This document shows, piece by piece, positions 3,801 to 26,648 of a stretch of 64,000 bases of DNA. The notes under the pieces were generated by a model that worked only from the letters and a program-made list of their open reading frames with translations, did no database searches and was not told the DNA's origin. Within the stretch, counting starts at the first letter, position 1. Every line of letters begins with the position of its first letter. The position numbers and the translations under genes are program-made. The stretch covers positions 256,001 to 320,000 of the forward strand of contig CAWIXE010000001.1 of assembly GCA_963840035.1 (NCBI GenBank), read 5' to 3'. This DNA is from a candidate division FCPU426 bacterium. Lineage in GTDB: Bacteria > Oederibacteriota > PGYV01 > Palsa-1178.

Positions 3801-4296
3801 ACTGAATGAACACGGAACCTGCCGTGCCGAAGGAACCGTCGAGGCCGCCGTCCATGAATTTTACTATCATGGAGTCATAATCCGTTCCGTTAAATCTGTA
3901 GCCTGCGGCCAGAGGCCTCTGGTCATTTCCAACTATGATTGCCTGCAGCGCCTCGTCATTAAACCCCGAGGCTGCGTCAAATCCCTGATATCCGCCGGGC
4001 CCGAAGTTTGTGTCAGCCGACCCGTTTTCATTGCAGCGCCACACAGCGGCCATGGTGTTGCCTGCCGCGTCGCTTTTTCCCGCCATGATGAGCCTGCCGG
4101 AAGAATCCCGCGCGATGTCAAAACCCATGTCCCATAACCCAAACCCGCGGTCCAGCCTTTTTTCGCCGTTGCCGTTAAAAGAAGTATCCGGCCCTATGCA
4201 CGGCGTCTGCGTCACAGTGGGTGTCTGGGTAACTGAAGGCGTAACTGTCGGCGTGAAACCCGTCACCCCGTAATCATCCGCTCCTATGTCCCATGG
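1..4296 (-). CDS. Third segment of a giant secreted multidomain protein (delta-60-like propeller repeats, Kelch-like repeats, NHL repeats, Thr-rich tract); runs off the window's left edge
   Basis: Not in the ORF track, probably because it has no stop inside the window. Minus frame checked by hand at several points reads PWDIGADDYGVTGFTPT (4296), TNKDM, MDAMIWRGKDGC, KMWVI, VQLACHVYTIAGG, IADMGNTRVRVIKGC, then T-x repeats down to base 1. Confidence 0.85.
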
Positions 4297-7200: not shown

Positions 7201-10200
7201 GCCATATGCCGTGGCCCGGATTTGTGAAGATGAAATACGCAGAACCTCCGCCGAGGTTGTTCGGCGATATAACCGCATGATAAATGGTCCCGGGATTAAG
7301 GGTCATATTCGGCATGTCTATGGTGTTCCACATAAAAGAATTAAAGGAGACATTGCTCCACGACGAATAAACCGTCGTTCCCGGAGCGTGCGCCGCGGTG
7401 CCGTCGTCGTCCCTGATCTCGACATTGAATGTCGGGCTCATGGTTATGGACGATACATATATCCTTAATTTATCAAAGGTCATGTTCTTTGAAACCGTGA
7501 ACCTGAAGCTTAATTTTTTTGACGGATCGTCCAGGGCGGTGACGGAATTCCCGTCAACCACGCTTTTATTCCCAAAAAGCATTATCGGCGTCTGTGCGGG
7601 CGTCGGGGTTATGGTCGGAGTTCCGCCGGCCGTGAACATGAGCGATGCAGGAACGCCTATTTTTGAATATTCCGGTGAACCGTTATAATCCAGATAAACC
7701 CACCTGCCCGAGCCGCAGGCATTATACGCTTTTATGGAAAAGTACAGGCTGTGGCCCGGCGTCCATGTTATGGATCCCATCGCCGATGTCCAGCTGAATA
7801 ATGTGGCTGCCCCGCCCAAAAGCGACGTGCACGACGACGAGAACAGGTATGCCCCCGGCACCGTTCCCGAGTAGTCATAAACATCCACCATGTAATTCAC
7901 GCATACCCCGCCGCCGGTCTCGTAGCCGTAGAAGTTGAATTTCCAGTCGCCCGGGTCTATGTTCGTATTATATAGAGGCCCCGTGGTCCATGCCGCAAGC
8001 TCCGACGTGCTCCATGGCCCGACCCAGTTATTGACGTTCTGTACCGGCCCGGGCGGTAATCCTGTATGCAGCATCCTGGCTGATCCAGGGTCCGGGGCAA
8101 AATCTGTCCACAGGTAAAGTTCCGTCCCTGTCCCGCCGCTTCCGGTTCCCGGCGGCTGCACCCATGAGTCATCCGTGATTGATTCGTAGTAGATATTTAT
8201 AGTGGCAGAAGGCGGCGATGCCGACGCCACAAGCGCGTAGAACTTTATATATATCCTGTCTGTTGATGCAAAGCCATAATCAGGCTGGCTGGCAGAGGCC
8301 CATGTCAGGGTTGTGGTTAAACCCGACGGTATTATAGGAGAGTCCGTGGTAAATAATGGAGTTGCCGGTATGGGCCCGCCCGCCGGGTATTTATATACCT
8401 CAGCCCTTATTTTATATCCCCAGTTGGACCCGGATGATTCCGCCGAGCGTATGGAGAAGTTCCACGGTCCCGCGCCCGGTATGTTTGTGCCGACCTGCTC
8501 GGAATCCCACTCGCGTATGAACTGCGTGTAACCGGCTGCCTGGCAGCAGTTTATGGTGGTATTCTGCACGTATGTAGACCCGCCCGTGGGCGCCGTTGTT
8601 TTCATCTCGCGCACTATGGAACAGCAAGGGTCCACGGAATAATTGTCGCGCAGATGCCACATGGTTCCTGGCCCTCCGCCTGACCCCGCGTTCGGCGCTT
8701 TTATATACCCGGCGTACAGCGCGCCTTCATATGTAAAGTCTATGGTCGTGCCGCCCGGGCATGTCCCATCCTCAACCACGCGCACTTCCACGTATATCCT
8801 GTCCGTGGCTGTAAAACCGTAATCAGGTTTGTTAACTTCCGTCCATTTTACTTCCTGCATTGATGAGGGTATTGTCCCCGGAGCTGTCGTGGTAAAAAGG
8901 AACGTTCCCGGCCAGGAACCGCCGCCGGCGTATTTATATACATTAAGTTTTAATTTATAATGTCCCGTGGCTGAAACATCCCTTACGTGCAGGGAAAATT
9001 CCCAGTCTCCAGCCGCCGGTATATGCGTGCCAACCGGGGGCGTGTCCCAGACAGAGAGCGAAAAATCAATTGCCCCCGGGCACGCCCACGGATATGTGGA
9101 GTTCGTTGTCCCGGCGCCGGTAGGTATTATCATGTCCATTTTTGAAGCAAGGCCTGACGGGTCGTCTGAAGACGCGGATTTAAAATACCACGCTGTCCCG
9201 GTTGTCGACCCTGACGCGCTGCCGGATGAAAGGTAAACCGGAAAGTCGCCGTAGCTTGAGTTAACCGAGTTCCAGGTCGCGCCTCCATTGACGGAGAACA
9301 TCGCAAAATCCGTGATGCCGTCGTAAGTCGCGTTCATGTAAGGATAGACACCGTTAGCCGGGTCAGCCGCGACTATGGTGTATGAATCCGGGAATGTTGA
9401 CAGGTTGGAATAAAGCACCACATAGTACTGGCCTGCGGAAAGCGGCACGGGCGTCATGGTTGCTTTTGCCCATGAGAATGAGGTTGTTGAATTTGTCTTT
9501 GTAAGAAGCGTTCCTGACGCCACAAGCGTGTTTGAGTTCGTCCTGATCTCCCATTTCAGGTCATCGGCTGGCATATTGCCCGTCGTCCGTCTTACATAAG
9601 CGCCTATTTCCTTTATTGACGACGCTGAAGTCAGGTTTACGGACTGGTTTATATAATTGCTCCCGTATATTTCCCACGCCATGGCTGAAGCGTAAGGGTT
9701 GCCGCTCCAGGACGACATGGTTGAATTGTAGTACATAAATATGGGCATGTATCCTGTTATGCCGTATCCCGAACCTGAATTGAACGATGTCATGAGCGAC
9801 CCGTCATAATACTGGTCATAAGGTATGAGCATGTGGTTGGGCCTTGAGCCGTCAGTTATTACGGCGTAATTGTTTGAATCAACTACAGACCCGCCGTCCC
9901 ACTCTATTACTATATGGTACTTGACTCCCTGCGTGAGCACCGGCCCGGGCGCGAGGGTCAGGGAATTCCAGCCTATGGACATGCCGGCCGTATTTATGTA
10001 GGCGTTATATCCGCCTATGGCAAACCCGTCCGGTTTTCCCGAGCCGTCGTCGTTCTGTATGGAAACTCTGTAGCCGGCTGTCCCCGTCTTGAATTCAAAA
10101 TACAGCCTTATGTCCGTGATGCTTCCTGTCTGCCTGGCCGTAAAATCAATTGACGCTTTTTTGGAAGTGCTGTCAAGCGCGGTCCCGGCGTTCCCGGATA

Positions 10201-11077
10201 CAGCCGCCCTGTTTCCGAAATACACTGCGCCGTTGGGCGTAGCGGTTGCCGCGGCCGGAAGCAGCGGCTGGCTGTCCGTCCCGAAATCAAGCGATGAGCC
10301 CCAGGCCACGCCGCGGTAATTACCCGCAGGGTAATAATCAATGGAAATACCCGGCTTGAATACCGGCCTTTTACCGGCGTGCGATATGGTCCATGAAGAA
10401 GGCGACTCCTGCTTTGCAACGCGTATGGCGCTGTCGGTGCTTGAATAATAAGCTATCATCGGGTAATTGTTCGCGCTGTTGTCAAGGCACAATGACACGC
10501 CGTTGCCGCAGTGGAAGTTGTCGAGGTATGTTTTGTGCAGGGCCCCGTCATATACCGCGTATACAAGCGTCCCGCCGGCAAGCGTATACGCAAAACGCGT
10601 ATCGCCTCCGTTTACGCATTTAATATCCACACCGTTGAAAGTAGCCCCGCTTTCGATGAGCATGTCGCCGGCGCTTTCCCATGCCATGTATATCTGGCCG
10701 GTTGCCTGGTCCCTTGCCGCCATCTGTATGGCTCCTCCGGGTTCTATGGTAATGGCTCCCCAGGAAGGCGTAAACCCGGGAAAATAACTGCCGGGCGCGT
10801 TCCATATGCCCGGTGATGATTCCCTTGTCAGGAAAAATTTTCCGTCCATTATGTAAGAAACGCACAGATACCCTGATGGGTCTATGCACAGCGAGGTATT
10901 GCCTGAAACCGAAGTTCCGGCAAAAGGCGCTTCATAGTTCCACGAACCCGGCGATGATTCCCTCGCTATGAGAAGCTTATTATTATTGCTGTCGTAATAA
11001 CTTACCCTGGCGTAACCCGTTCCCGGATCTATGGCAAGGGAAGCTCCCTGCCCGCAATTCGGCGTGGAATCAAGCAC
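4274..11077 (-). CDS. Middle segment of the giant secreted protein (propeller-like blades, repeated beta-rich domains, beta-helix ending in a choice-of-anchor-Q-like motif)
   Basis: 2267-aa ORF with no signal peptide; ends DLHLKAGSTLIGQG...DIDGGTR and the expected WDIGAD continues in another frame. Confidence 0.85.
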   Translation of the reverse strand: MLDSTPNCGQGASLAIDPGTGYARVSYYDSNNNKLLIARESSPGSWNYEAPFAGTSVSGNTSLCIDPSGYLCVSYIMDGKFFLTRESSPGIWNAPGSYFPGFTPSWGAITIEPGGAIQMAARDQATGQIYMAWESAGDMLIESGATFNGVDIKCVNGGDTRFAYTLAGGTLVYAVYDGALHKTYLDNFHCGNGVSLCLDNSANNYPMIAYYSSTDSAIRVAKQESPSSWTISHAGKRPVFKPGISIDYYPAGNYRGVAWGSSLDFGTDSQPLLPAAATATPNGAVYFGNRAAVSGNAGTALDSTSKKASIDFTARQTGSITDIRLYFEFKTGTAGYRVSIQNDDGSGKPDGFAIGGYNAYINTAGMSIGWNSLTLAPGPVLTQGVKYHIVIEWDGGSVVDSNNYAVITDGSRPNHMLIPYDQYYDGSLMTSFNSGSGYGITGYMPIFMYYNSTMSSWSGNPYASAMAWEIYGSNYINQSVNLTSASSIKEIGAYVRRTTGNMPADDLKWEIRTNSNTLVASGTLLTKTNSTTSFSWAKATMTPVPLSAGQYYVVLYSNLSTFPDSYTIVAADPANGVYPYMNATYDGITDFAMFSVNGGATWNSVNSSYGDFPVYLSSGSASGSTTGTAWYFKSASSDDPSGLASKMDMIIPTGAGTTNSTYPWACPGAIDFSLSVWDTPPVGTHIPAAGDWEFSLHVRDVSATGHYKLKLNVYKYAGGGSWPGTFLFTTTAPGTIPSSMQEVKWTEVNKPDYGFTATDRIYVEVRVVEDGTCPGGTTIDFTYEGALYAGYIKAPNAGSGGGPGTMWHLRDNYSVDPCCSIVREMKTTAPTGGSTYVQNTTINCCQAAGYTQFIREWDSEQVGTNIPGAGPWNFSIRSAESSGSNWGYKIRAEVYKYPAGGPIPATPLFTTDSPIIPSGLTTTLTWASASQPDYGFASTDRIYIKFYALVASASPPSATINIYYESITDDSWVQPPGTGSGGTGTELYLWTDFAPDPGSARMLHTGLPPGPVQNVNNWVGPWSTSELAAWTTGPLYNTNIDPGDWKFNFYGYETGGGVCVNYMVDVYDYSGTVPGAYLFSSSCTSLLGGAATLFSWTSAMGSITWTPGHSLYFSIKAYNACGSGRWVYLDYNGSPEYSKIGVPASLMFTAGGTPTITPTPAQTPIMLFGNKSVVDGNSVTALDDPSKKLSFRFTVSKNMTFDKLRIYVSSITMSPTFNVEIRDDDGTAAHAPGTTVYSSWSNVSFNSFMWNTIDMPNMTLNPGTIYHAVISPNNLGGGSAYFIFTNPGHGIWPTDQRYDQYAKAMLYTFGSWVGLSGMPVMVLINQDLVNDYGNPYEMPFNFAVHGSGTSPYTGDDQFISETFPGPTSVTKVVSLKAYVMKNGNPTAPLRYMIWNMTDAIDVKDGIMALPNEAAGTYAWVEKYIGEVTLNPGKNYRLHFYADGSGTDGANNYTVNAGQSSDGSAEFGYASYGGTAYEGSYTANGGSTWWNIAHGDISYEFLAEGPGCNFVFGKPDQGGSSAITLIDTSRYTLTQAADVSRLMLYIANDGGGGKHARVAIYDNDPLLDGNLGGPKTLICESTDQSVTAGWNDFVVPYRSLPAGDYWLAIQSETGVLIGYDNVIGSHDSAYRDVWTYGNFPAVFLPDHFDDWRWAIKAELCVSGGPTPTVTPTTGPPAISWHLRSYLSDDPNTVPALSQNPPTGSNMLLTYSAPNCPSTGTVYHFGGWDSPVLGSNVPGAGIWKFNMYGGDPTNSNAYHFRVDVFKYAGGGGEPGTLLMSSVSPDPIPGTTGPVVWQETWPDLGFAPTDRIFIFVSAQVVGSCPPSSMLGIVFDSPGYDSWMDAPVGQGATPTPTQTSTALPVPTEIVYSVGVDMTDHKTGSPLASVSGGILNFSTAQDNSKTGIGDEVIINSGAYILYLTRKINTSTWEAMNSNGGVAADFTNLPVTSIKRAFSNMAYAVTGASDSTHLNGSDLVAMNKRINIVCYNDGTDTVAFGINGYTTDQARNINIFAPTDTGTQCNARQAHTGTAGTGYTINTSGYTGMGTVDVWQPFTQFTNIAFTGWAGGGNAGIRIGADGVIIYKCLITNPTGSAPGGDAIRVISSGINVFVVNNFIYNIPRAAFYIPENMTGVHAVFESNTVVNAHNLNNDSTVPAVGFDSTAANNFGSNIDITDSYVHAINYSCFGTGGSGIFSGSGHNASADSTATGTGSLTNQPPPPQFVNSTQGSEDLHLKAGSTLIGQGYDMGAKYNEDIDGGTRLPAMGHRSG

Positions 11078-14000
11078 CCTTATCTTCCAGGAACCATCCG
11101 GCTGCCTGCTCCGCGTACTTTAGCATCAGGGAAGCCTGGTCAAAATACGCAATCCTCGCAAGCCCCGCTGAATTATATTTGATGGAAGTGTATGCCGCGT
11201 CATCCGTTGCAATCCTCTCCGACCTGTAATTTTTGTCCCCGCCCTGCGCCGGGGTCGGTATAAGAGTTACTGTCTGTGTGAATGTGGCCGAAAACATTAA
11301 TGAATTGCATTTATATATTATTCCGTCAGCCCCGTTTGACGCGCCGTTGCCCGGGCCTGCGTTAGCGCTGACAGCTCCTGTAAAACCATATGTCCCTGTA
11401 GTGCAAAGGTTTATCAATCCGCCGGACCCGCCGCCGCCGCCATTGGGCCAGCCTTTTCCGCCGTTGGCCATGACAAAACCTGTCCCGTCTATTATCTGCG
11501 CCATGACGTTTATCGCGCCGCCCGCGCCGCCGCCTGCGCCGTTTATCGGCGTGCCGCCGGTAAAATAACCGGCTCCGTTCATTTCCATATTGCCGTTTAT
11601 GGTGACCCTGCCTGCCGGGTTATATAATATGAGGGCAGCTCCTCCGTTATATCCTACTTTCGCGCTTGACCCTCCGCCTCCGGCGCCTGAGTACTGAGGA
11701 AACAGCGGATCATCATATCCCACTCCGCCGTTTGCCGCGTTCTTTCCGTTTCCGCCGTAACCCGCGTGGCCGCCGCCTCCTCCTCCCGAAGCTCCGTCCG
11801 GCGCCGCGTTATACTGCGCCAATTGTCCCATGCCGCTGGACATGGTTGCGCCCCCGGAAAATCCGAGGCTGGTGCCGCTCACGTAACCGCCCGCGTCAAT
11901 TACAAAATCGCCGCCGGTCACCGTTATGGTCACCGCGCCGGGCCCCTGTATGGAAAGCGTGCTGCCGCTGTAAATATGCACTGAGCAGAATGAATAATTC
12001 CCCGCTGTCAACGTCATGTCCGTGGCGACCTCAAGCGCGCATGAAGTCGGTGTGACCGTCGGAGTTATGGTCCATGAAGGCGTGCGCGTGGGCGTAAGGG
12101 AAAAAGATGATGTCGGTGTGCCTCCCACGCGCAGGCGGAAGGAAATATCCCCGGGCTGCGCTGTCCACGCTCCGCCGCCGTTCACGCTGGTGGACATGTA
12201 TGCTGACTGGCCGAGCCATGTTACGAGCTCGTACGGCAGCCCCGCGGTCAGGAGTTTTTCTCCCACTATCATATAGGGTGATGTTGACGCGCCTGAAGGC
12301 GATGTGAGCACTAGGCTGTACTGCTTTCCCGTTTCAAAGTATACGCCGTTTGTAAGGGGTTTTTCAACCCACACAGGCGTCTGCTGCGCCTCGGCAGCGG
12401 TCATAAAAGTGCCGCTGGTCATGGTCACGCCGTCGGTCCAGTTATATATGGAGTAGTACAGGCTGTCCGCGGGGACGTTCGCGGTCCTTGTGACATAAAG
12501 CCCCATGTTATATGCCCAGAAATTTCCGAACCCGGCGTCAGGCCCGGGAAAAGTTTCCTTTACAAAATTTCCGGTCCCTCCGGTGCCGTATACAGGCTGG
12601 TTCCCTTTTGAAGTGTACACCTTTCCCTGGTCATTTGCCGCCGTGTTGTATTCCAGTTCAAATATCGGCGACGACCCGTACCGAAGCCAGGTTGTGCCTA
12701 CGTTATTTGAAAGAAGCGTATCAGAAAAACCGTCGTATGTTGACGTTACAGGATCAAGATAAGTGTTTGTGTTCTGTCCCATCGCTATCTGCCCGTAGTT
12801 TGAGACGTTTATAGTCCCTGTATCATAACCTATCAGCAGGTGGTATTTTGTCCCGGCTGTCAGTACTATGTTGGTCAGCGCCGCGCTCCTCCACGTGCCC
12901 GCGGCCGCTGTCATGGTCCCCGAGGTCAGGGACACTCCTGTCGGAAGCCCCCCGCTGTCCGCCTTTATTGCCACCCTGTAAGTCGGGCTTGTTCCCAAAG
13001 CGCCTGACCATAGTATGTTTGCCTTGTTCACGGTATCGGTCACCTTCTGCGTGAACCTGAAATCTATCATGACGCTCGCGCTTGACATTATATTTCCCTG
13101 CAGCAGCGTGAACGTATCCCTGTTCCCCCAGTACTGGTATGACGGGCAGTACTGTATAGCGGCCGTGTAAATATATGCTTCGCTCGCGGCGCCGGTCATG
13201 GTTGCCGGGAAGGTTCCCCACGACGATGTGAGCGTGTACGCGTCGCCCGCGTTTGCTGAAGAGTAAGCGACCAGCCCTCCGCCGTTCATCATGAACGCGG
13301 CCCAGTAGGTGCCCTTGGGCAGGCTGGTGAAGGGGAATGAAAAGCTCTGAATTCCGTTTACAAGCGCCGCCGCGCCTGACTCGAAAAGTTTTGTCCCGGG
13401 TATGCCCGCGTTGTCCGCGTAAACAGCCATGCGCCCCTGGAAAGCGCCCGCAGTGTTGACTCCGAGAAGCCCGGCGAACGCGTAGCCGTCCTCGGGCATA
13501 TAAAATCTCGTTGCCTTTATGACTCCGGATACTCCCGTATAATTATTCGCTCCCATTCCTGTCTTGCCGGCGGGCATGGGCTGGCTGCATACCGTCGGGC
13601 TCGGGGTCTGGGTGTTTGTTGGGGTGAACGTTGCCGTCATTGTCCAGGTGGAAGTGCGGGTGCTTGTCGGCGATATTGATGGCGTGCTCGTGGGCGACAT
13701 TACTGCCGGGTCATAAAAACGCCATGCCGCGGCATCCTGGTATGTTGATGTAAGCGATGTTATGCCGCCCATTACGATCCTTCCCAGCGGGTCAATGCAC
13801 ATACTGTATCCTATATCCGTGTCAGATCCCGGTTGGGTAAAACCATAGTAGTAATTTGCCCCTGAATAAGTGCTGTCAACCGTTCCGTTGGAGTTCAGCC
13901 TTCCGGTAAAAGCATACCCGGAGCTGTTTCCTCCGAACAGGATCTTATTGCCCGCGTCAGTATAAACTCCATATGCAGCATCATCATTGCCGGACGGGGC

Positions 14001-15137
14001 AAGCGTAATATATCCTGTCCCGTTGAATGAAGTGTCAAGAGGGCTGCCCGAAGGGTTTAGCCTCCAGAAAGCAAGGTCCTTATTTCCGGAGGAATTATTT
14101 GCGTATCCGCCCGCGACGTATTTTCCGTTTGTATCCACAGTTACATCAAAGGCGCCTTCGGCCTTCATTGACCCGCCTGCCGCGTTTTTATGGGTGAAGA
14201 ATCCGGTTCCGTTAAAGCCCGTGTCAAAGGAGCCGTCGGGATTAAGGACCCATACGGCCATATCGTAGTTTGCTGTCGTTTCAGCGTTATAGCTGTAACC
14301 GCATATTACTATTTTGCCTGCGGCGGTTATGGTCAGCCCGTACGCGTAGTCGGCTGCTGCGGCTCCTGAACCGCCTGCCGCTCCCGCATGCGTGCGCCAT
14401 CCTACCGGGGAATTAAATGTGTTATCTATGGTGCCGTTAGGGTTGAAACGCCAGACAGCCATGTCCCATCCGTTTGTGGATGACTGGGCGGCTCCCGCCA
14501 GTACTATCTTTCCGTCAGGCTGGATGAAAATTCCATAGCCCCTGTTGTTCCCCGCGGACCCCGTGGCCGCGGTCATGGTGACATAACCTTTTGACGCGTT
14601 GAATCCTGATGTGTTGAGTGTGCCGTCTCCGTTATAGCACCAGACGGCCGCGGCATTATACCCTGATATGTCCGTCGTATAGCCTCCGACATAAAGTTTT
14701 CCGTCAGAAGAACTTACCATCACTGATTTTCCGCAGTCAGTCCCTCCTCCACCGGCGTCATTATTGCGGAACACCCAGCCGTTAGGCGCTCCGAATGTGG
14801 TGTCAAGTTTTCCGTTCGGAAGGAGTTTCCACACCACCATGTCGTCGGTTGCCGATGTGCCCAAGCTGCTTCCCGTCATGTATAAGCTTCCTCCGGGGCC
14901 GTTGCAGATGCCGTATACGTAGTCATACTGTGCCGCGCCATATCCGCCGCCTGCGGCGTTATCCTGCCTGAAATACCCGCCGGTCCCGAAATCGGCGTCT
15001 ATGGTCCATGACGCTGATATAATGGAAGGCATTAATAAACAAACGGCAATAAGGACGGGCATAAATATCCCGTTCAAAAAAACCCTGCTTTTTTCTCTTA
15101 TGCACACCTTTTTCATCTCTGCTTTTTCCACATTCAC
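11070..15137 (-). CDS. N-terminal segment of the giant secreted protein (signal peptide, delta-60-like repeats, Thr/Pro linkers, Gly-rich domain)
   Basis: 1355-aa ORF; hydrophobic signal (VLIAVCLLMPSIISA); repeated DMAVWR...G.LDTSFNGTG units; start could be 15137, 15131 or 15116. Confidence 0.85.
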   Translation of the reverse strand: MNVEKAEMKKVCIREKSRVFLNGIFMPVLIAVCLLMPSIISASWTIDADFGTGGYFRQDNAAGGGYGAAQYDYVYGICNGPGGSLYMTGSSLGTSATDDMVVWKLLPNGKLDTTFGAPNGWVFRNNDAGGGGTDCGKSVMVSSSDGKLYVGGYTTDISGYNAAAVWCYNGDGTLNTSGFNASKGYVTMTAATGSAGNNRGYGIFIQPDGKIVLAGAAQSSTNGWDMAVWRFNPNGTIDNTFNSPVGWRTHAGAAGGSGAAAADYAYGLTITAAGKIVICGYSYNAETTANYDMAVWVLNPDGSFDTGFNGTGFFTHKNAAGGSMKAEGAFDVTVDTNGKYVAGGYANNSSGNKDLAFWRLNPSGSPLDTSFNGTGYITLAPSGNDDAAYGVYTDAGNKILFGGNSSGYAFTGRLNSNGTVDSTYSGANYYYGFTQPGSDTDIGYSMCIDPLGRIVMGGITSLTSTYQDAAAWRFYDPAVMSPTSTPSISPTSTRTSTWTMTATFTPTNTQTPSPTVCSQPMPAGKTGMGANNYTGVSGVIKATRFYMPEDGYAFAGLLGVNTAGAFQGRMAVYADNAGIPGTKLFESGAAALVNGIQSFSFPFTSLPKGTYWAAFMMNGGGLVAYSSANAGDAYTLTSSWGTFPATMTGAASEAYIYTAAIQYCPSYQYWGNRDTFTLLQGNIMSSASVMIDFRFTQKVTDTVNKANILWSGALGTSPTYRVAIKADSGGLPTGVSLTSGTMTAAAGTWRSAALTNIVLTAGTKYHLLIGYDTGTINVSNYGQIAMGQNTNTYLDPVTSTYDGFSDTLLSNNVGTTWLRYGSSPIFELEYNTAANDQGKVYTSKGNQPVYGTGGTGNFVKETFPGPDAGFGNFWAYNMGLYVTRTANVPADSLYYSIYNWTDGVTMTSGTFMTAAEAQQTPVWVEKPLTNGVYFETGKQYSLVLTSPSGASTSPYMIVGEKLLTAGLPYELVTWLGQSAYMSTSVNGGGAWTAQPGDISFRLRVGGTPTSSFSLTPTRTPSWTITPTVTPTSCALEVATDMTLTAGNYSFCSVHIYSGSTLSIQGPGAVTITVTGGDFVIDAGGYVSGTSLGFSGGATMSSGMGQLAQYNAAPDGASGGGGGGHAGYGGNGKNAANGGVGYDDPLFPQYSGAGGGGSSAKVGYNGGAALILYNPAGRVTINGNMEMNGAGYFTGGTPINGAGGGAGGAINVMAQIIDGTGFVMANGGKGWPNGGGGGSGGLINLCTTGTYGFTGAVSANAGPGNGASNGADGIIYKCNSLMFSATFTQTVTLIPTPAQGGDKNYRSERIATDDAAYTSIKYNSAGLARIAYFDQASLMLKYAEQAAGWFLEDKGA

Positions 15138-15802: not shown

Positions 15803-17383
15803 TTATTTTACTATATATAGTTTTTTAGTTGTCTGGCCTGAAAGCTGTTTTACAATCACAAAATACAGGCCTTTGCCAACCTTTTTTGACTTGTCATTTG
15901 TCCCGTTCCACCAGGCTGTGTATGTACCCGGGGCCAGGTCAAAGATATAAAACTCCCTCACCAGCTCCCCGTTCAAGTTATATATTGCGATGGATGACCT
16001 CCCGCCTTTTTCTATGACATAATCTATCCTCACCTGCTCGCCTTTTGTAGGGTCAAAATAGTTCTTATCCGTCTTTACCTTTTCCTCAGGCGTTGCAGTT
16101 GGCGGGACAACCGGCGTATTTGTCGCTGTTGCCGCCGGTGTAACAGGGGTATTTGTGGCAGTTGGTAGCTGGGCTATGTTAAATATGTTTGTCTGTACCT
16201 GCGCTGATTCTATGGAAGTTGTATTCTCCGAACCCCTCGCCGACGCCGTAAAATAACCCGTGCCTGTTCCGGCAGCTTTATAAATCCACGTAAAGGTAAA
16301 CGCCCCTGTGGAGCTTATTGCCGACGCGTTGGCCGGTATCGGGCCGTATACATACTGCACACTGCCGGTTCCTGTGTACCCGGGAAGCGACTGGGGTACT
16401 ACGCTTGTTGCCCCGAGATTTCCGCTGTTTGATACCACAAGCTTTACTGTTACGTTCTGGTCGAGCAGAGCGTTTGCCGGCGCAACCGACGCCGATGCCT
16501 GCAAATTCGCGCCTGACACATTTACCGCTGCCTCCGCGCTTTCATAATAAGTGCCGCCGTACATGTAGTCGTATTTTAACGACGCTGAATTTATTTTTGA
16601 AGTGCCGTACGTGATTATTCCAGGCTGGCATTCCGCCATGATATATATATCCCCGGCTGCCAGGTAGGAAAGGTTTCCGGCGCTGAACGAAATAAAATTT
16701 CCGTTTATCAGCGGTGTTAAAAGCGGCGCTGAGTATGTTCCGACTATTGACATCCCCTGCGGTATGGTATCCCAGACCTGTACCGCGTTTGCCTGGTGAA
16801 TATTGCTTAAGTTCTGATAATTGATATGGTAAGTAACCGTGTTTTTTGCCATTACGGAAGTGACGTTGGCTGATTTCAAAATTTTTACGTTTGTGACGCG
16901 CATTGAGGGCTGGCTGTCTAAGGCCGCGTATGAGGCGCCTGTAGCTGACTCGTTTATTTTAAATACGTATTCACCCGGGTACATGGGGGTGGAAACGCCG
17001 TAGCCTGTCGCGAGGTCGCCGTAGACAATCTCCATGTAGTCATTGGTTGCCATGTCCAGTGCTGTTATTGTGACGGCGTTCCCTGACAATAAAATATTTG
17101 CCTGCGGCACGGGTTCCGCGGTGGAGCCGCTCCTGTATATGGTGGCTTTCATGACTCCCTGGGAAGACGTTATAAATGTAGGCGGGCTGGTAAACGCGTC
17201 AGGTATGACAAGCTCCAGTTTTCCCGCAGAAATGCCGTATGCAGGAGGGTAATACAGGACCTTAACTTCCACGCCGTTCCCGTTCGGGGCCGCTTCCTGC
17301 GGCGTGATGGAAGCCGTGCCTGTCATTGCGTATGATGCCGCGCTTATCAGCAATATAATTGCCGCTGTAACTGATCGTTTCAT
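15803..17383 (-). CDS. Secreted protein with DUF11-like domain, Thr/Pro linker and C-terminal FlgD-like Ig domain
   Basis: Signal peptide; KSANVTSV...VTYHINYQN...VWDTIPQG; C-terminus IYNLNGELVR...WWNGTNDKSKKVGKGLYFVIV. Confidence 0.8.
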   Translation of the reverse strand: MKRSVTAAIILLISAASYAMTGTASITPQEAAPNGNGVEVKVLYYPPAYGISAGKLELVIPDAFTSPPTFITSSQGVMKATIYRSGSTAEPVPQANILLSGNAVTITALDMATNDYMEIVYGDLATGYGVSTPMYPGEYVFKINESATGASYAALDSQPSMRVTNVKILKSANVTSVMAKNTVTYHINYQNLSNIHQANAVQVWDTIPQGMSIVGTYSAPLLTPLINGNFISFSAGNLSYLAAGDIYIMAECQPGIITYGTSKINSASLKYDYMYGGTYYESAEAAVNVSGANLQASASVAPANALLDQNVTVKLVVSNSGNLGATSVVPQSLPGYTGTGSVQYVYGPIPANASAISSTGAFTFTWIYKAAGTGTGYFTASARGSENTTSIESAQVQTNIFNIAQLPTATNTPVTPAATATNTPVVPPTATPEEKVKTDKNYFDPTKGEQVRIDYVIEKGGRSSIAIYNLNGELVREFYIFDLAPGTYTAWWNGTNDKSKKVGKGLYFVIVKQLSGQTTKKLYIVK

Positions 17384-18201
17384 TGTTCTTCGCCTCCTCT
17401 TTTGACTGCTGTCGTAAATATCCTGTTTTTAAGCGCTGAAACCGCTGCCGCGCCGTAGCCGCCTTCAATTATCTTCATTTTATCGGATAATTTTTTTGAA
17501 AGATCCGCGTACTTATCCCTGCCGAGCCCGGCCTTTACGGATTTAAACCTGAGGAAGAGCAGCCCTGTCAGGGCTTCTTCCACGGTCCTTGCGGCTTCGT
17601 CGTGCGCCATGGCGCACGCTTCAATATTCTTTGCCATTCTTTCATTGTCAATTGAGCCGTTTACCCGGAGGTTTCCGTCCGCGCTCCAGTTTGTGTTCTT
17701 AAGCACCGGGTAAGCCAGCGCTGATTTTTCAAGCGTCCGCAGCATCATATTCTCCACATTTTTTTTATCTATGACCGCCGTCAGTTCCGCGCTCATGATG
17801 CGCCTTATCTCATCAAATCCCTCAAGCACTTCAATGATATCCTTTGGCGCGGTTGCCGGGACGCCCGCCGGGGCTGCCATGTCCTGGGCCGCTTTCATTT
17901 CCTTTTCTATCTCAGCCGCCCTTTTTATCAGGTCATCCGCGGAATTATCCACGGCAGCTGGTTCCTGTTTTACTTCAGGTTTTCTTTCCCTGCTTGCCTT
18001 TTCCGCCAGTTCCATCTCCGCGAATTTATTGACCACTATTTTTGCCGCCGCCTTTTCTTCGGCCGGAGGCGCTGTTTTTTTTACTTCCACGGGCACGTCG
18101 ATTTTTTCAGGGGATTTTGCCGGCGCTTTTTTCGCCGGTTCAACTGTCCCGAATATGTCGCCAAGGTCCTCTGTGTTAATCGACATCTCGTCGCGTGTCA
18201 T
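17380..18201 (-). CDS. Hypothetical protein (disordered acidic/Ala-Pro N-half, helical C-half)
   Basis: 273-aa ORF with AGGAG upstream; ATGA overlap with the next gene. Confidence 0.75.
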   Translation of the reverse strand: MTRDEMSINTEDLGDIFGTVEPAKKAPAKSPEKIDVPVEVKKTAPPAEEKAAAKIVVNKFAEMELAEKASRERKPEVKQEPAAVDNSADDLIKRAAEIEKEMKAAQDMAAPAGVPATAPKDIIEVLEGFDEIRRIMSAELTAVIDKKNVENMMLRTLEKSALAYPVLKNTNWSADGNLRVNGSIDNERMAKNIEACAMAHDEAARTVEEALTGLLFLRFKSVKAGLGRDKYADLSKKLSDKMKIIEGGYGAAAVSALKNRIFTTAVKRGGEEQ

Positions 18202-18311
18202 GGTACGTGATCTCCTTTTATTTATAATTCCCGATTACTGCCCCTGCATTTCTGCGAAGGCCTTCTTTGGGATTTGTGATTTGGGATCTGTGATTAACTT
18301 TCTACCCGCCA

Positions 18312-18686
18312 TTACCCTTTCTTCGCCTCTAAAATCGCCTCTATAATCGCGCCTTCGACCTTCCACGCGGCGTACTGGCTGAAATCTTCCGGTTCCGAAT
18401 GGCTGTAATTTCCGACCGCCTGTACCAGGGCCTTGTTTCCGGCGGCAATAAGCCATGCCAGCGTCAATCCTGCACCCCTGTAATTATTGGCTATATGTAC
18501 GACATTTTTCAGCTGGGACTGCACAAGGTGCATCCTCGCGTCGTCCTTTTCCTCTTTTGTTTTGGCCTTATCAAGTTTTTTGACAAGAACCTCCACCTGC
18601 TGAGCGCTAAAGTCCTTTGTTTTTCCTATTTGCACGAGGTAGATTTTCAGTTCCCTTTCGTCAATGCTGATCAGTTTTAATTTCAT
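18312..18686 (-). CDS. Stand-alone divergent sigma-70 region 1.2/region 2 protein (no regions 3/4)
   Basis: LKIYLVQIG...ARMHLVQSQLKNVVHIANNYRGAGL..WLIAAGNKALVQAV...FSQYAAWKVEGAI aligns by eye to the RpoD/RpoS consensus; only 124 aa. Confidence 0.8.
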   Translation of the reverse strand: MKLKLISIDERELKIYLVQIGKTKDFSAQQVEVLVKKLDKAKTKEEKDDARMHLVQSQLKNVVHIANNYRGAGLTLAWLIAAGNKALVQAVGNYSHSEPEDFSQYAAWKVEGAIIEAILEAKKG

Positions 18687-18690
18687 AAGT

Positions 18691-18867
18691 TCACTCCCCT
18701 GCTCCGCCGGACAATCCGGCCTGATTTTCTATCCATTTTTTTATTATTTTTAAGTTAACAAACTCGTTGCTGACCGCCTCAGGATGTTCCTTGAGGAATT
18801 TGTTTAATACATACTTTGAAACCCTCATATACTGCGCAGCTTCATTTTTAGTCGCCATAGTTTCCAT
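18691..18867 (-). CDS. Small 58-aa helix-turn-helix protein (HTH_17/excisionase-like)
   Basis: Manual translation METMATKNEAAQYMRVSKYVLNKFLKEHPEAVSNEFVNLKIIKKWIENQAGLSGGAGE; AAGGAGG RBS; stop 4 bp before the sigma-like gene. Confidence 0.7.
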   Translation of the reverse strand: METMATKNEAAQYMRVSKYVLNKFLKEHPEAVSNEFVNLKIIKKWIENQAGLSGGAGE

Positions 18868-18909
18868 ATGCTGCCTCCTTAGATTTCCTCACCGTTCCTC
18901 TATATTATA

Positions 18910-18925
18910 AGCATTACCCGTGCCA
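18910..18925 (-). promoter_or_regulatory. Putative sigma-54 (-24/-12) promoter
   Basis: Minus strand TGGCACGGGTAATGCT: GG-N10-GC spacing, one mismatch to TGGCACG-N4-TTGCW, ~30 bp upstream of the RBS. Confidence 0.65.
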
Positions 18926-19114
18926 ATAAAGGTCCAATGGAATATGGGGTTTTAGGGCTTTGTTTCATAATGCGGAAAAATAGTGTAAAGATTCTTTACA
19001 GGAGGGTTTGTTTTTGGACGGTTAAAACACTATTGTCTATTGACGATTGTCGATTGACTATTAGCTCTTCAACCTATCTGTACTATTAACATGTTCTGTT
19101 TGCAGTCTTTAGCC

Positions 19115-19287: not shown

Positions 19288-20016
19288 TCAATTATTTTCA
19301 ATTCTTTTAATGCTTTCCGATAACTTCCTGTTCTTCAAAACCAGTTCTTTTATTTCCCTGTCCACATCCAGGGTCATATTATCCGGTATATTTATGCCTG
19401 AGTTTTTTACCAGATTGAGTATTTGTTTTTCTTCCTTCATCATGTATATCCTCTCATCCAGCTGGACGAGCTTCCTTTTCATGAATTCAATGAGGTCTTT
19501 TTTTGCCTCCTGCGTCATATTATCCGCGAGCATTTCAGGGGCAGCTTCAAGCTTATAAAAACTTTCAAAGGCGCCGGTCGCCTTAACCCAGCCTTCCCTG
19601 GCGTCAAATATAGCCTTAAGCTCAGGGCACCCTGCCGCGGCGCAGTCCTTTACCTTTTTTGTGTATTCATCTATGACAAGCATGGAAAAAGTAAAATAGT
19701 CGTCCTTTAAGGCTGTCAGTTCCCTGTTTAAGGTATAGGATTCATAGCCGAGCTTGTTGCCGGCTTTCAGGAGATAATTTAATTTGAGTGTGTTTATAAA
19801 CGGGATAAAAAATCCGGATGTTTTTTCATTTTTTATGGAATCAATTTTCCTTGATACAGCCTCATATTTAATCCTGGCCCTGTCATAAGCCGCCTGTTTT
19901 ATCTTAATAGATTTATCCGCCGCATTGGCCTTCGCCATAAAGTCATCAAGCGCCCCGGCCCCGAAAAGGCTGGTTGCGAGTAAAACGGCGGCGAGGAGCG
20001 TGGTAATTTTTTTCAT
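19288..20016 (-). CDS. Hypothetical exported helical/coiled-coil protein
   Basis: 242 aa, signal peptide MKKITTLLAAVLLATSLFG, GGAG RBS. Confidence 0.75.
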   Translation of the reverse strand: MKKITTLLAAVLLATSLFGAGALDDFMAKANAADKSIKIKQAAYDRARIKYEAVSRKIDSIKNEKTSGFFIPFINTLKLNYLLKAGNKLGYESYTLNRELTALKDDYFTFSMLVIDEYTKKVKDCAAAGCPELKAIFDAREGWVKATGAFESFYKLEAAPEMLADNMTQEAKKDLIEFMKRKLVQLDERIYMMKEEKQILNLVKNSGINIPDNMTLDVDREIKELVLKNRKLSESIKRIENN

Positions 20017-20284: not shown

Positions 20285-21613
20285 CTACAACCCGTATTTC
20301 TTGATCTTAGCCAGCAGCGTCACGCGGTTGAGCTTTAAAAGTTCGGCCGCCTTTGCCCTGTTCCCTTTTGTCTCCGCAAGCGCCTGAGCTATCATATTCT
20401 TTTCCAGATCTTCCACTTTTCCGTTTAAACCCTCTCCGCTTCCTGATAAAACAGCCGCCTTTGAATGTATTTCATAGGGTATATCCTCTTCCGTTATCGT
20501 GTCTCCCGCGGCCATTACCATGACGCGCTGTATTATATTCTCAAGTTCCCTTATGTTCCCGGGAAAATCATACTGCGTAAGGAGTTTTACCGCCTCGTCG
20601 GATATGGACTTGACCTTATAATTATTATAGCCCGCGTATTTTGTTATGAAGTATTCGCAGAGTTCCTTTATGTCCTCTTTCCTTTCGCGCAGCGGCGGCA
20701 TGGCGATTTCCACCACGTTAAGCCTGTAATAAAGTTCCTGCCTGAACCTGCCGGAGGCCACTTCTTCCTTTAAATCCCTGTTGGTCGCGGTGATCACCCT
20801 TACGTCGACCTTGATGGTCTTTTCCCCGCCAACCCTTTCAAACTCCCGCTCCTGTATGACGCGCAGCAGCTTTACCTGCAGTTCCTGGGGTATTTCTCCT
20901 ATCTCATCCAGAAATATCGTGCCTTTGTCAGCGAGTTCAAACCTTCCCTTTTTAAGGGCCACCGCGTCGGTAAAGGAGCCTTTTTCATGTCCGAAAAGTT
21001 CAGACTCGAGTATTCCCGGGGCAAGCGCCGCGCAGTTTACCTTGACAAGCGCGTGCTCCCTGCGGGGGCTTTTGTCATGTATCTCTTCGGCTATTAATTC
21101 CTTGCCTGTTCCTGATTCGCCCGTAATCAGCACTGTCGCGTCTTTTGGCCCTATCTTCGCGGCCATTTCAATGATGGCGCGGAACTTCGCGCCTGAGCCT
21201 ATTATTTTCCTGTTCCCGGATGATTTAAGGTAGGCGTTTTCTTCCTTTATTTTTTTTGCCCTGAGGATTTTTGCGGCCTGCAGCCTGACATGGTCTATGG
21301 AAAAAGGTTTTGTAATGAAATCCGCCGCCCCTTTTTTCATGGCGTCCACGGCCTTATCCACTGTCCCGTGGGCGGTTATAACTATGACTTCAGCGTCTGA
21401 ACCGGATTTTTTTACGGCCTCAAGCACCGACATTCCGTCGGCTTCGGGCAGTTTCAGGTCGGTAATGACGATATCAAAATCGCCTGCTTTGAATTTTTGT
21501 ATGCCTTCCTCGGCCGAACCCGCCTCGGTTACGGCGTATCCCTCGGTGGTTAATGCCTCTTTGAGCACTTCCCTTAAGCTCTCATTGTCTTCCACAACAA
21601 GTATTTCGTACAT
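20285..21613 (-). CDS. Sigma-54-dependent response regulator (NtrC/AtoC/ZraR family)
   Basis: Receiver domain (VVEDN, TDLKLP), GESGTGKE, ESELFGHEKGSFTDA, Fis-type HTH. Confidence 0.95.
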   Translation of the reverse strand: MYEILVVEDNESLREVLKEALTTEGYAVTEAGSAEEGIQKFKAGDFDIVITDLKLPEADGMSVLEAVKKSGSDAEVIVITAHGTVDKAVDAMKKGAADFITKPFSIDHVRLQAAKILRAKKIKEENAYLKSSGNRKIIGSGAKFRAIIEMAAKIGPKDATVLITGESGTGKELIAEEIHDKSPRREHALVKVNCAALAPGILESELFGHEKGSFTDAVALKKGRFELADKGTIFLDEIGEIPQELQVKLLRVIQEREFERVGGEKTIKVDVRVITATNRDLKEEVASGRFRQELYYRLNVVEIAMPPLRERKEDIKELCEYFITKYAGYNNYKVKSISDEAVKLLTQYDFPGNIRELENIIQRVMVMAAGDTITEEDIPYEIHSKAAVLSGSGEGLNGKVEDLEKNMIAQALAETKGNRAKAAELLKLNRVTLLAKIKKYGL

Positions 21614-22510: not shown

Positions 22511-22517
22511 TTCACCT

Positions 22518-25253: not shown

Positions 25254-26648
25254 TTAAAGTATTATCTTAATTTCCGTCCCCTGCCCTTCGGCGCTTTCCA
25301 CGGTTATGTCTCCGCCGTGTATCTCCTTTATTATCCTGTACGCTATCGCCAGCCCCAGGCCCGTGCCTTCTTTCCTGCCGGTAAAAAACGGTTGGAATAT
25401 TTTTTCCTTTACGCCGGCGGGTATGCCCCTGCCGTTATCCTTTATAATCACGATGTTTTTTCCTTTATCCTTAAGTATGTTAACTTCCACATATCCGTCC
25501 GGCTTATCAAGCGCCTGCCAGGCGTTTATTATTATATTGTAAAATGCTTTTTTCATCAGGTACGCGTCGGCTTTAATAATCCCCGCGGACGGCCCGTAGC
25601 TCTTTTTCACGGCCTGCCTGGCTTTTTCAGGCAGTTCCCCTATTGTGTCATCGGCTATTTTGCTTAAATGCGTTTCCTGCAGGTCTGGCGTGAATTCCTT
25701 GGTGTACGCCAGGAAGTTGTTTAAGAACTCGCTCATCTTAAGGGCGTTCCTTACTATGTCGTCGGCGTATTTCTTTATTTTCTCATCCGGGGTTTTTTCC
25801 CTTATGAGTTCGGCATACCCGGAGAGCGCCCCGAGGGAGTTGCGTATCTCATGCGCCACGCCGGCCGAAAATTCGCCCACAGTGGCCATCTTTTCCCTGT
25901 TTTCTATGTAGTCCTTAAGCTCGTTCTTCATGGAGTCAAGGGTTCCCGCTAAAAGCCTTATCTCCTCCTCCCCTGTCACCTTTATATCCTCCCCGAAGTT
26001 CCTTTTTGCTATCTGCTCGGCTTTCCTCTTTAGCGCGTCTATTTTCCCTGATATGCCGCCGGATATCATGAGGGAAAGTATGATGGCTATGGCAAAACTC
26101 ACAAGCCCTATTATGGCGAGGAATTGCCTGTATTGTTTTATGTAGCCTATATATTCCGCCGACGCTTCCACAGCCACTACAGCCGGCACTTCTCCCCCGG
26201 AATCAAGGGGCACATAGCCCGTCTTGAAATAAAGCCCCTCCGCCCCCTTATAAAGCGGCGATGACGCGGCCTCTCCTTCAAAGGCTTTTTTTATCTCAAA
26301 CCTGTCCAGGTTCAGAAAAAATTTTTCATTCTCATTAAGGGTTGATAAAAGTATGTTCCTGTTCTCGTCAATAATAAGGATATCCCTGACTTCCGTTATT
26401 TCCCTGAGCTTGGTGAGCTTGTCCCTGTATGTTTCGAATATTTTTCCCTTGAGTTTTAAAAGAGGGATGTCCTTCGGGTTCACGGCGTCGGCTATGATCT
26501 CCCCCGCGGTGGTCAGCCTGTTCTCCATCTCAGCCTCGAGGTTGTTCCTGATCAGGTTATAAGTTATGAATCCATATATGCCGATGACTATCGCGGAGGC
26601 AAAAAGGAAATATAACAACACTTTGTTTCTGATAGTGTTTAATACCAT
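25254..26648 (-). CDS. Membrane sensor histidine kinase (HAMP, HisKA, HATPase)
   Basis: Two TM segments; GVAHEIRNSL; NIIINA; DNGRGI; FFTG..GTGLGL. Confidence 0.95.
   Translation of the reverse strand: MVLNTIRNKVLLYFLFASAIVIGIYGFITYNLIRNNLEAEMENRLTTAGEIIADAVNPKDIPLLKLKGKIFETYRDKLTKLREITEVRDILIIDENRNILLSTLNENEKFFLNLDRFEIKKAFEGEAASSPLYKGAEGLYFKTGYVPLDSGGEVPAVVAVEASAEYIGYIKQYRQFLAIIGLVSFAIAIILSLMISGGISGKIDALKRKAEQIAKRNFGEDIKVTGEEEIRLLAGTLDSMKNELKDYIENREKMATVGEFSAGVAHEIRNSLGALSGYAELIREKTPDEKIKKYADDIVRNALKMSEFLNNFLAYTKEFTPDLQETHLSKIADDTIGELPEKARQAVKKSYGPSAGIIKADAYLMKKAFYNIIINAWQALDKPDGYVEVNILKDKGKNIVIIKDNGRGIPAGVKEKIFQPFFTGRKEGTGLGLAIAYRIIKEIHGGDITVESAEGQGTEIKIIL

Follow-up and report, generated by a model that had tools for sequence, protein, structure and literature searches.

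A stand-alone sigma region 1.2-2 protein behind a predicted sigma-54 promoter in "Ca. Goldbacteria" as a possible regulatory decoy

The established cases of sigma mimicry mainly concern PhyR, which is of the ECF type, and those of sigma factors consisting of domain 2 only mainly concern phages. A cascade from sigma-54 to an alternative sigma factor operates in Borrelia (Rrp2-RpoN-RpoS) where, as at the locus described here, a two-component enhancer-binding protein and a sigma-54 box lie upstream of a surface-protein-linked sigma-70-family gene. PhyR of Alphaproteobacteria, in the part of PMC8103513 concerned with it, uses a degenerate sigma fold as a titrating decoy. The present locus, from a genome of the order "Ca. 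Goldbacteria", encodes a free-standing protein of sigma-70 regions 1.2 and 2 (half-sigma, or pseudo-sigma), a family of which no description was found in the open-access literature. Within the 64,000-nucleotide stretch of DNA analysed (the window), the layout of the original prediction was confirmed, with the box, the 58-aa and 124-aa open reading frames (4 nt apart), the 273-aa protein and the FlgD-Ig-tailed protein all on the minus strand:

4274..15137, minus strand: two very large predicted surface proteins of 1355 and 2267 aa, co-oriented (open reading frames)
15803..17383, minus strand: 526-aa predicted secreted protein with DUF11 repeat and FlgD-Ig/T9SS-like tail (open reading frame and domain matches)
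17380..18201, minus strand: 273-aa cytoplasmic-looking protein (open reading frame and fold model)
18312..18686, minus strand: 124-aa stand-alone sigma region 1.2+2 protein, the half-sigma (open reading frame, clean stop)
18691..18867, minus strand: 58-aa HTH_17/AlpA/excisionase-like small protein, an optional operon member (open reading frame and family comparison)
18925-18910, minus strand: predicted sigma-54 (-24/-12) promoter, TGGCACGGGTAATGCT (box motif; start predicted near 18899)
18963..18978, minus strand: imperfect palindrome TTTC-N7-GAAA, candidate activator site, ~54 nt upstream of the -24/-12 box
19288..20016, minus strand: 242-aa predicted exported helical protein, just upstream (conserved in 12/17 loci)
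20285..21613, minus strand: NtrC/AtoC-type sigma-54 activator, REC-AAA-HTH8 (domain matches)
22452-22865: STAS protein gene
25254..26648, minus strand: HAMP-HisKA-HATPase sensor kinase (domain matches; 10/17 loci)

The half-sigma is almost certainly a real gene. RpoD, RpoH and RpoS models match the 124-aa protein over regions 1.2-2 only (best E, 1.5e-14), and its Sigma70_r2 match (21.7 bits) falls below the cut-off of 24. The clean stop and missing region 3/4 remnant, both claimed originally, held up, as tblastn against 17 loci, with the C-terminal half of RpoD and that of the 361-aa sigma from this genome as queries, gave a best E of 0.74. In the window's genome (G000, 98% complete), all 14 region-4 matches adjoin one of the 15 region-2 matches, and no orphan region 3 or 4 was found. 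The proposed search for short region-2-only homologs showed the short form to be present in 17 of the order's 24 genomes and in none of 75 others of the phylum (99 genomes in total), with a length of 120-134 aa in 42 family members. In 48 distinct tails, 54-74 aa follow Y394, a tally made with a loose motif pattern that mis-registered some rows and used for tail lengths only. No relative was found in a contig scan with the single 124-aa protein as query or among the viral contigs scanned. Two other short sigma-like proteins (P0144 and P0168) were seen. The half-sigma was not found in seven genomes of the order (G004, G008, G016, G017, G019, G021, and G022); contigs of G022, G019, and G021 end close to the activator locus, the 273-aa ortholog of G022 being cut at the contig end, and G004, G008, and G016 also lack the activator ortholog. 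The dN/dS ratio, suggested originally as a check for a pseudogene, was 0.11 and 0.25 in two congeneric pairs (a third was dS-saturated, with dN of 0.10), and pN was below pS in 120/120 pairs, indicating purifying selection.

The original -24/-12 promoter was confirmed as a predicted box, GG[CT]A-N7-TGC, lying 49-83 nt ahead of the first gene at all 16 loci with enough upstream sequence; shuffled 160-nt windows gave a mean of 0.1 and a maximum of 2 of 16 loci. The pattern occurs twice in the window (shuffle mean, 0.11), and taking its GC as -13/-12 places the predicted start at ~18899. A GG-N10-GC box with conserved spacing is combined with an enhancer-binding protein and rpoN, which is present in the window's genome and matched in 23/24 genomes of the order, and the operon promoter is very likely sigma-54 dependent, as predicted from sequence. 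The palindrome reaches at least seven of eight matches in 11/16 loci against a shuffle mean of 0.3, a comparison affected by the pattern having been picked from the same loci. This candidate activator site is kept in loci without the HTH gene and is therefore probably not the operator of the HTH protein. It was rejected as a regulon marker, since only 7 of 862 box-like genome sites carry it and no regulon emerged; the only other plausible site with box and palindrome precedes hsp20.

The sigma-54 activator and STAS genes were located where the original prediction placed them, and its upstream cascade was supported for the activator, which adjoins in 11/17 loci, and rejected for the STAS protein, present in 1/17. 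Full-length activator orthologs (59-71% identity) occur in 19 of the 23 other genomes of the order, with a partial one in a further genome and none found in three. Domain content and position suggest that this protein is likely the cognate activator of the operon and that the sensor kinase is likely its partner. No conserved anti-sigma or cognate sigma was recognised at the 17 loci.

The AlphaFold model of the half-sigma (pLDDT, 88) resembles sigma domain 2 (TM, ~0.73). The fold of regions 1.2 and 2 of a functional group 1/2 sigma-70 is present, but the chain does not go on into regions 3 and 4, and it lacks most of the -10 melting residues and the acidic region 2.2 set. The window motifs WLIAAG, YAAWK, and EGAI replace DLIQEG, YATWW, and RQAI, as originally described. 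Residues were compared between 40 family members (2 of the 42 were dropped by the cutting pattern) and 15 full-length sigmas. Among Y425, Y430, W433, W434, R436, Q437, T440, and R441, only Y/F430 (34/40) and W433 (39/40) are kept: R436 is E in 40/40 members; Y425, W434, T440, and R441 are kept in none, with hydrophobic residues throughout at 440 and D/N at 441 in 35; and Q437 is kept in one, with G in 34. PMC10911233 and 10.1101/2020.09.07.285775 name these changed positions as melting/backbone residues. The median net charge of residues 414-445 is -3 in half-sigmas (n = 25) versus +5 in full-length sigmas (n = 15). The protein is, with good confidence, not a -10-melting sigma.

Core-facing residues are also changed. 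The net charge of the 2.2 helix is +1 in half-sigmas versus -3 in full-length sigmas, the core-binding set D403, Q/E406, E407, and N409 reads W/A/A/N in the window, and 26/42 members have no acid at 403, 406, or 407. Two or three acids on this helix are retained by 13/42 members, mostly of one subclade, and all three by 1/42. The single beta-prime of the genome keeps the basic clamp-helix groove. Other positions contacting RNAP or single-stranded DNA are kept (L384, 38/40; V387, 33/40; N409 and K/R385, 40/40; N383, 29/40), as is the L-K-x-Y of region 1.2 (28/28, 28/28, and 27/28). Core-binding substitutions of this kind merely weaken clamp binding (10.1101/2020.09.07.285775).

With the residues for opening DNA and docking on polymerase mostly replaced, the half-sigma likely serves as a decoy or adaptor that binds a protein, rather than as half of a functioning sigma. 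Such a regulatory decoy or adaptor, binding a protein partner and not acting through core RNAP, is the preferred reading, held tentatively at a little under an even chance. The kinase would phosphorylate the activator, which would open the -24/-12 promoter, and the operon would yield the pseudo-sigma together with the surface proteins. Unable to start transcription, the pseudo-sigma would grip a protein through its remodelled, hydrophobic and acidic former -10-reading helix (W433-E436-G437-I/L440-D/N441-I444). From known sigma structures, the 433-444 stripe is presumably surface exposed. The gripped protein would most likely be a regulator of transcription whose usual target is sigma domain 2 or DNA, and the grip would feed the sigma-54 signal into gene control.

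The half-sigma likely descends from a ~290-aa alternative sigma. Its best full-length profile matches are RpoS/SigB-like alternative sigmas of ~290-320 aa (70-82 bits), compared with 55-58 bits for RpoD and the 361-aa sigma encoded in the window's genome. These ~290-320-aa sigmas carry YR(G/N)(A/R)G...SYAVWWIRQ (e.g., L082, L086, L105, and L111-L126) and, unlike the half-sigma, are full length with all functional residues intact; in the loci examined they have neither a sigma-54 box nor neighbours in common with it. E381 and R395 are common to both groups, some members sharing the whole YRGAG motif, and were consequently dropped as new half-sigma invariants. In a FastTree analysis of ~78 columns, in which L082, L086, L093, L102, L105, and L110 had been chosen by shared motif, all 25 half-sigma rows grouped together (support, 0.70) and were placed next to the ~290-aa clade with support of only 0.35, after two long-branch rows. 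As tree support is low, the origin rests on profile scores and the shared motif. No full-length copy of the ~290-aa clade was found in the 24 genomes of the order, so that a PhyR-like release of a cognate sigma has no obvious cognate; what it targets would need to regulate RpoD or the 330-380-aa sigma.

Among the alternatives, docking on the beta-prime clamp helices is unlikely. The half-sigma would there compete with sigma-70-family factors or NusG, or ride elongating polymerase holding the non-template strand, helping or gating the long surface-protein operon. The conserved L384, V387, N409, K/R385, and region 1.2 motif, an F401-like residue, and the acids of the one subclade favour docking, as does the place of the half-sigma, which comes first or second in a series of co-oriented genes spanning at least 14.5 kb of the window. 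The part of PMC5101437 covering the -7T pocket lists N383 and R385, and the sections of PMC7892883 on clamp binding make the clamp helices common to NusG and gp55. However, those sections also require three acids of gp55, whereas helix 2.2 is net basic in most half-sigmas, facing a basic groove, and position 410 is K/R in 30/40. The original decoy for core RNAP is weakened, the acidic clamp-binding residues being lost in most members and kept in one subclade; a decoy or adaptor for a protein partner is preferred.

Slightly less probable still is reuse of the sigma fold outside sigma control: the half-sigma might, for instance, partner or chaperone the 273-aa protein, or self-associate as a module linked to surface-protein production. 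Nucleic-acid and core faces have both changed; the 273-aa gene adjoins the half-sigma in 13/17 loci (in two, split into two frames), and a member of a loose secreted-protein cluster comes next in 17/17. Against this, the four loci without the 273-aa gene keep the half-sigma and its invariants, which persist in genus g4 where the HTH gene is also absent, and 273-aa paralogs occur across the phylum without a half-sigma. A paralog pair also lies elsewhere in the window's genome. The 273-aa model comprises a short N-terminal helix, a disordered linker, and a helical C-terminal domain with no clear known fold: Foldseek gave no match at E of ≤0.001, and the best VIA-align match, the spidroin N-domain (Z, 6.5; rmsd, 3.7; 120 aligned), scored within the range of common helical bundles. 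The best ESM Atlas score for the domain (0.86) is a lead only. The N-terminus of the 526-aa protein is signal-like, and its C-terminus has a FlgD_ig/CHU_C match (E, 5e-5) below cut-off; orthologs of its N-terminal part occupy the same position in 11/17 loci, the window included. The 1355- and 2267-aa surface-protein genes may be co-transcribed with the operon, given gaps of 98, 3, and -8 nt.

It is improbable that the former DNA face, now acidic, acts as a DNA mimic that binds the small HTH protein, the two forming an anti-repressor or co-regulator pair and no sigma. All 12 strong HTH matches in the 99 genomes stand beside a half-sigma, translationally coupled to it (gap, -26 to +4 nt), and the HTH gene is under selection (dN/dS, 0.33). 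Nevertheless, it is missing from 5/17 loci, was not found elsewhere in those genomes, and is also missing in lineage L097-L101, with about four separate losses and E436 unchanged; this neighbour, whose conservation was asked about originally, is not an obligate companion. The window protein alone matched no HTH family, and its original description as HTH is sustained by relatives, of which 5/12 match HTH_17 at E of ≤1 (best, 6e-4). PDB sequence searches with HTH and 273-aa profiles returned nothing under E of 0.1, and neither protein matched a known anti-sigma.

A shade more improbable is the split sigma of the original prediction, in which the HTH protein recognises upstream DNA in trans while the half-sigma binds core and melts the -10 element, as in SigO-RsoA or gp55-gp33; in a variant, the half-sigma acts on its own as a gp55-like -10-only sigma with new specificity. 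Adjacent, coupled genes, the intact sigma-2 fold, and W433, F427, and Y/F430 are in keeping with this reading. The HTH protein as a missing region 4 is, however, not supported, in view of its HTH_17/AlpA-like character (the profile match to RpoD region 4 had a probability of 1.3%, and a separate HMM test was weak for both classes), its dispensability, the loss of W434, R436, Q437, T440, and R441, and the lack of an orphan region 3 or 4. A decaying pseudogene, or an N-terminal half rejoined by sigK/skin-type DNA rearrangement, has next to no probability: the nearest full-length relatives are ordinary ~290-aa sigmas, as it would have it, but fixed length, purifying selection, the lack of a remnant or orphan C-terminal half and, more weakly, of a longer family member among 7,989 longer candidates scored largely refute it.

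In a fuller and rather doubtful scenario, a whole alternative sigma was cut to domain 1.2-2 in the ancestor of the order, both faces were charge-flipped, and the remainder was reused under sigma-54 control as a free decoy linking sigma-54 to sigma-70-family control or as a clamp-riding processivity factor, in an RfaH-like role, for the giant surface-protein operon. If true, this would be a second, independent way in which a sigma becomes a regulator that does not transcribe, and it would give the two sigma families a path for cross-talk; the pseudo-sigma would be lineage-wide, free-standing, derived from group 1/2, and tied to a sigma-54 two-component circuit. The half-sigma is directly testable in vitro: it is small, looks soluble, has a good model, and comes in natural variants that differ in clamp residues and HTH presence.

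The half-sigma differs from the product of the Borrelia cascade in being truncated and degenerate. Sigma parts encoded by neighbouring genes recall SigO-RsoA of Bacillus subtilis, whose other subunit carries sigma4 in the relevant part of PMC8103513 (the table in PMC10141391 assigns the two in reverse), whereas the neighbour here is not sigma4-like and co-occurs in only 12/17 loci. Phage T4 gp55 (with gp33 and gp45) is likewise sigma domain 2 only with a small separate partner but, in the account excerpted from PMC7892883, keeps three acids on its clamp-binding helix and reads a -10-like element, of which most half-sigmas do neither; gp55 is phage borne and the half-sigma cellular. PhyR, of the PhyR/NepR/EcfG system, shares a sigma fold whose promoter- and core-binding regions have degenerated, placed downstream of a histidine kinase signal, and, as far as the PhyR portion of PMC8103513 goes, is ECF derived, combines sigma2 and sigma4 parts with a fused receiver, has phosphorylation as its switch, and lies beside its anti-sigma and sigma. 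The half-sigma, in which the fused receiver and sigma4-like part are absent, consists of group 1/2-type regions 1.2 and 2, is free-standing, and would be switched by predicted sigma-54 transcription.

The proposed operon lies on the minus strand, and each element that the original prediction listed for it was found in the sequence:

18925-18910, minus strand: -24/-12 box (sequence pattern)
18867-18691, minus strand: 58-aa ORF, the small HTH protein
18686-18312, minus strand: 124-aa ORF, the half-sigma, 4 nt after the 58-aa ORF
18201-17380, minus strand: 273-aa ORF
17383-15803, minus strand: 526-aa ORF with a signal-like start and FlgD_ig, CHU_C and T9SS-tail matches slightly below the cut-off

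Matches of the 124-aa protein to RpoD, RpoH and RpoS models are confined to regions 1.2-2 (best E, 1.5e-14), and the reported lack of a region 3/4 remnant is upheld across the 17 loci carrying the half-sigma (best E, 0.74). Within the co-oriented run, a 187-aa ORF (15141-15704) looks like a broken secreted-protein gene and terminates in a 7-bp tandem repeat (15221-15263).

Homologues of the half-sigma carry the source labels Candidatus Goldiibacteriota or Goldbacteria, rare-biosphere cellulose degraders according to excerpts of PMC7031533, which contain nothing on this locus. The short form, restricted to sigma regions 1.2 and 2, recurs: a matching open frame of 107 to 149 aa, stop to stop, occurs in 17 of 24 genomes of this order, the window genome counted, and in none of 75 genomes of other orders, where matches are full-length sigmas and the single 129-aa frame is cut by a contig end. 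Of the seven genomes of the order that lack it, contigs stop close to the locus in three, and in another three an ortholog of the neighboring activator is missing too. Additional library members have 120 to 134 aa. A motif scan gave 20 metagenome loci (17 short, 3 full-length), several being duplicates of order genomes already counted, and a search of longer proteins for relatives found ordinary sigmas only, which is weak evidence. The half-sigma is real, order-wide and odd. Two other short sigma region 1.2-2 proteins, P0144 (122 aa) and P0168 (130 aa), fall outside the family, retain DLIEHGN and DLIEEAN, and could be fragments or independent truncations.

The structure model of the half-sigma (pLDDT 88) has a TM of about 0.73 to sigma domain 2. 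Residues were compared between 40 members and 15 full-length sigmas, 2 of 42 members being lost to the cutting pattern. Numbering is that of E. coli sigma-70, anchored on N383, and the letters of the window genome's RpoD agree with residue numbers in the cited papers. Structural positions L404, I405, G408, N409, F427 and I435 are retained, as are W433 (39/40) and Y/F430 (34/40). W434 is lost throughout (0/40). E replaces R436 in 40/40 and G replaces Q437 in 34/40, T440 gives way to hydrophobic residues in 40/40, R441 to D/N in 35/40 and Y425 to D/E in 28/40. According to excerpts of PMC10911233, R436 and R441 contact the backbone, F427, Y430, W433 and W434 form the -11A pocket and wedge, and Q437 and T440 read position -12. 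Median net charge over 414-445 is -3, versus +5 in full-length sigmas, and that of helix 2.2 is +1 versus -3 (25 versus 15 rows in both cases). Charge is flipped on both faces, and the protein is degenerate in a patterned way.

Core contacts are made by 384, 387 and most of 402-413 (PMC8716302, in excerpt); D403, Q406, E407 and N409 bind core, and substitutions there weaken binding without abolishing it (bioRxiv 10.1101/2020.09.07.285775, in excerpt). Acids at 403/406/407 are missing altogether in 26/42 members, with two or three present in 13/42. The tentatively preferred reading is a non-melting pseudo-sigma of a sigma-54 operon, mostly a poor core binder, that holds a regulator via its former -10 helix. 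The kinase (25254-26648, minus strand) and activator would turn on the operon, with the pseudo-sigma as its first or second product. It would be unable to melt promoters and, in most members, would bind core poorly; the former -10 helix would have become an acidic-hydrophobic surface with a new invariant glutamate, and this surface would hold the putative regulator. A decoy role, also raised originally, is plausible.

A clamp-bound competitor or elongation factor, the strongest of the alternatives, is unlikely. The window genome has a single beta-prime with basic clamp helices retained, and L384, V387, N409, K/R385 (40/40), N383 (29/40) and the region 1.2 L-K-x-Y, kept despite degeneration, speak against clean loss; the missing acids stand on the other side, and gp55 requires three for binding the beta-prime clamp groove (PMC7892883, in part). 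N383 and R385 line the -7T pocket (PMC5101437, in part). Slightly less likely again is a role outside sigma control.

The sigma-54 box foreseen beside the half-sigma is conserved: GG[CT]A-N7-TGC lies 49-83 nt 5' of the first gene in 16/16 loci with enough upstream sequence (L008, cut upstream, was left out), versus a mean of 0.1 and a maximum of 2/16 in shuffled upstream sequence. It directly precedes the half-sigma at HTH-less loci, and rpoN is matched in 23/24 order genomes. A TTTC-N7-GAAA palindrome, picked post hoc, lies ~54 nt further up (at least 7/8 matches in 11/16 loci), and GTCAA repeats occur near -97/-77 in some loci; both are candidate activator sites. Across the 17 loci, adjacency holds for the NtrC/AtoC-type activator (20285-21613, minus strand) in 11 and the kinase in 10; the gene for a 242-aa exported protein is there in 12, that for the 273-aa protein in 13 and a downstream secreted-protein gene in 17. 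For the suggested upstream cascade, the activator is a likely member, and the STAS gene (1/17) is rejected. Since the window genome has at least seven sigma-54 activators, assigning the neighboring one to this operon rests on synteny.

The STAS and glycoside-hydrolase genes near the activator are insertions specific to the window genome in the 17-locus comparison. A 94-bp repeat (x7.9, with internal inverted symmetry) fills 21701-22451 between the activator and STAS genes, with related pieces near 22900-23080; a 294-bp unit (x1.9) lies at 26676-27239 between uvrC and the kinase gene. Elsewhere in the window genome (G000), a second good palindrome copy (TTTCCACAATGTGAAA) at C1:1139610+ lies 5' of a MerR-type HTH gene, close to a TTGACAA-N-TTGTCAA inverted repeat. 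Strong sigma-54-type boxes occur at C1:1042538+, C1:378148+, C1:641166+, C2:700971-, C2:819571- and C1:141637-, and the genes that follow look, on our reading of their sequences, like dnaK-groES, hsp20, gatC, type III glnA, PilZ together with another HTH_17 protein, and a lone receiver domain. Heat-shock genes in this genome may be sigma-54 driven.

The HTH protein is not region 4: profile comparison with RpoD region 4 gave a probability of 1.3%. HTH_17 is matched by 5 of 12 members (best E, 6e-4, below the cut-off), ESM Atlas neighbors at 0.92-0.94 comprise small phage proteins, AlpA, DUF3853 and HTH_17 clusters, and our HMM test placed HTH_17/MerR proteins above region 4, every score being weak. 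Selection acts on the HTH gene (dN/dS, 0.33). Its predicted association with the half-sigma holds in one direction: all 12 strong matches in 99 genomes adjoin a half-sigma, and the gene is missing from 5/17 loci (G002, with a deletion remnant, three genomes of one genus, g4, and G014) and from a further lineage (L097-L101), suggesting about four separate losses. These losses, with E436 unchanged, make a DNA-mimic partner of the HTH protein improbable. Marginally less probable still is a split or gp55-like working sigma. The split form, in which the HTH protein supplies region 4 in trans, is unlikely: that protein is not region 4-like and was repeatedly lost, and the window genome has no free region 3/4, all 14 region-4 matches adjoining one of 15 region-2 matches and all 4 region-3 matches lying within full sigmas. 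A pseudogene or rearrangement half is very unlikely: dN/dS is 0.11 in one congeneric pair and 0.25 in another (in a third, dS is saturated and dN is 0.10), and pN is below pS in 120/120 pairs, the signature of a maintained gene.

The best-scoring full-length matches of the half-sigma are RpoS/SigB-like sigmas of ~290-320 aa (70-82 bits), above the window genome's own RpoD and 361-aa sigma (55-58 bits). They share E381 and R395 with it, and some, on Acidobacteriota-labelled and other contigs, have the whole YRGAG motif. Queried with such a sigma, order genomes return RpoD and a 330-380-aa sigma only (33-40% identity). Scores, shared motif and this absence together indicate that the half-sigma is likely what remains of that clade's gene in the order; tree placement near the clade is weak (support, 0.35). 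L041 (G000:C3:1-20000), likely a contaminant or chimeric join with a GC of 0.70 versus 0.47 for the remaining genome, contains a FliA/WhiG-like sigma whose coding sequence is divided between two frames.

The 273-aa protein, with a short N-terminal helix, disordered linker and helical domain, has no family match or clear fold match. Its occurrence is not tied to that of the half-sigma: paralogs occur in 61/99 phylum genomes, all matches counted. Those of the window genome form a tandem pair (L073, G000:C1:501566-503816; 327 and 420 aa) 5' of a gene that we read as dGTPase-like; with no Pfam match, they belong to an unnamed family widespread in the phylum. Two genomes have the ortholog of the 273-aa protein divided between two frames (L012/L056 in G011; L018/L061 in G009).

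No description of a cellular half-sigma family was found in open-access texts without supplements, and PMC10141391, in excerpt, and the reference list of PMC4598750 offered nothing further for comparison. The half-sigma does not belong with gp55 or PhyR, nor its pairing with the HTH protein with SigO-RsoA. A Bacillus phage sigma has sigma2 as its sole Pfam domain (PMC7826278, in part), and the half-sigma is loosely like the sigma-like domain of PhyR, both being degenerate sigma folds (PMC8103513, in part).
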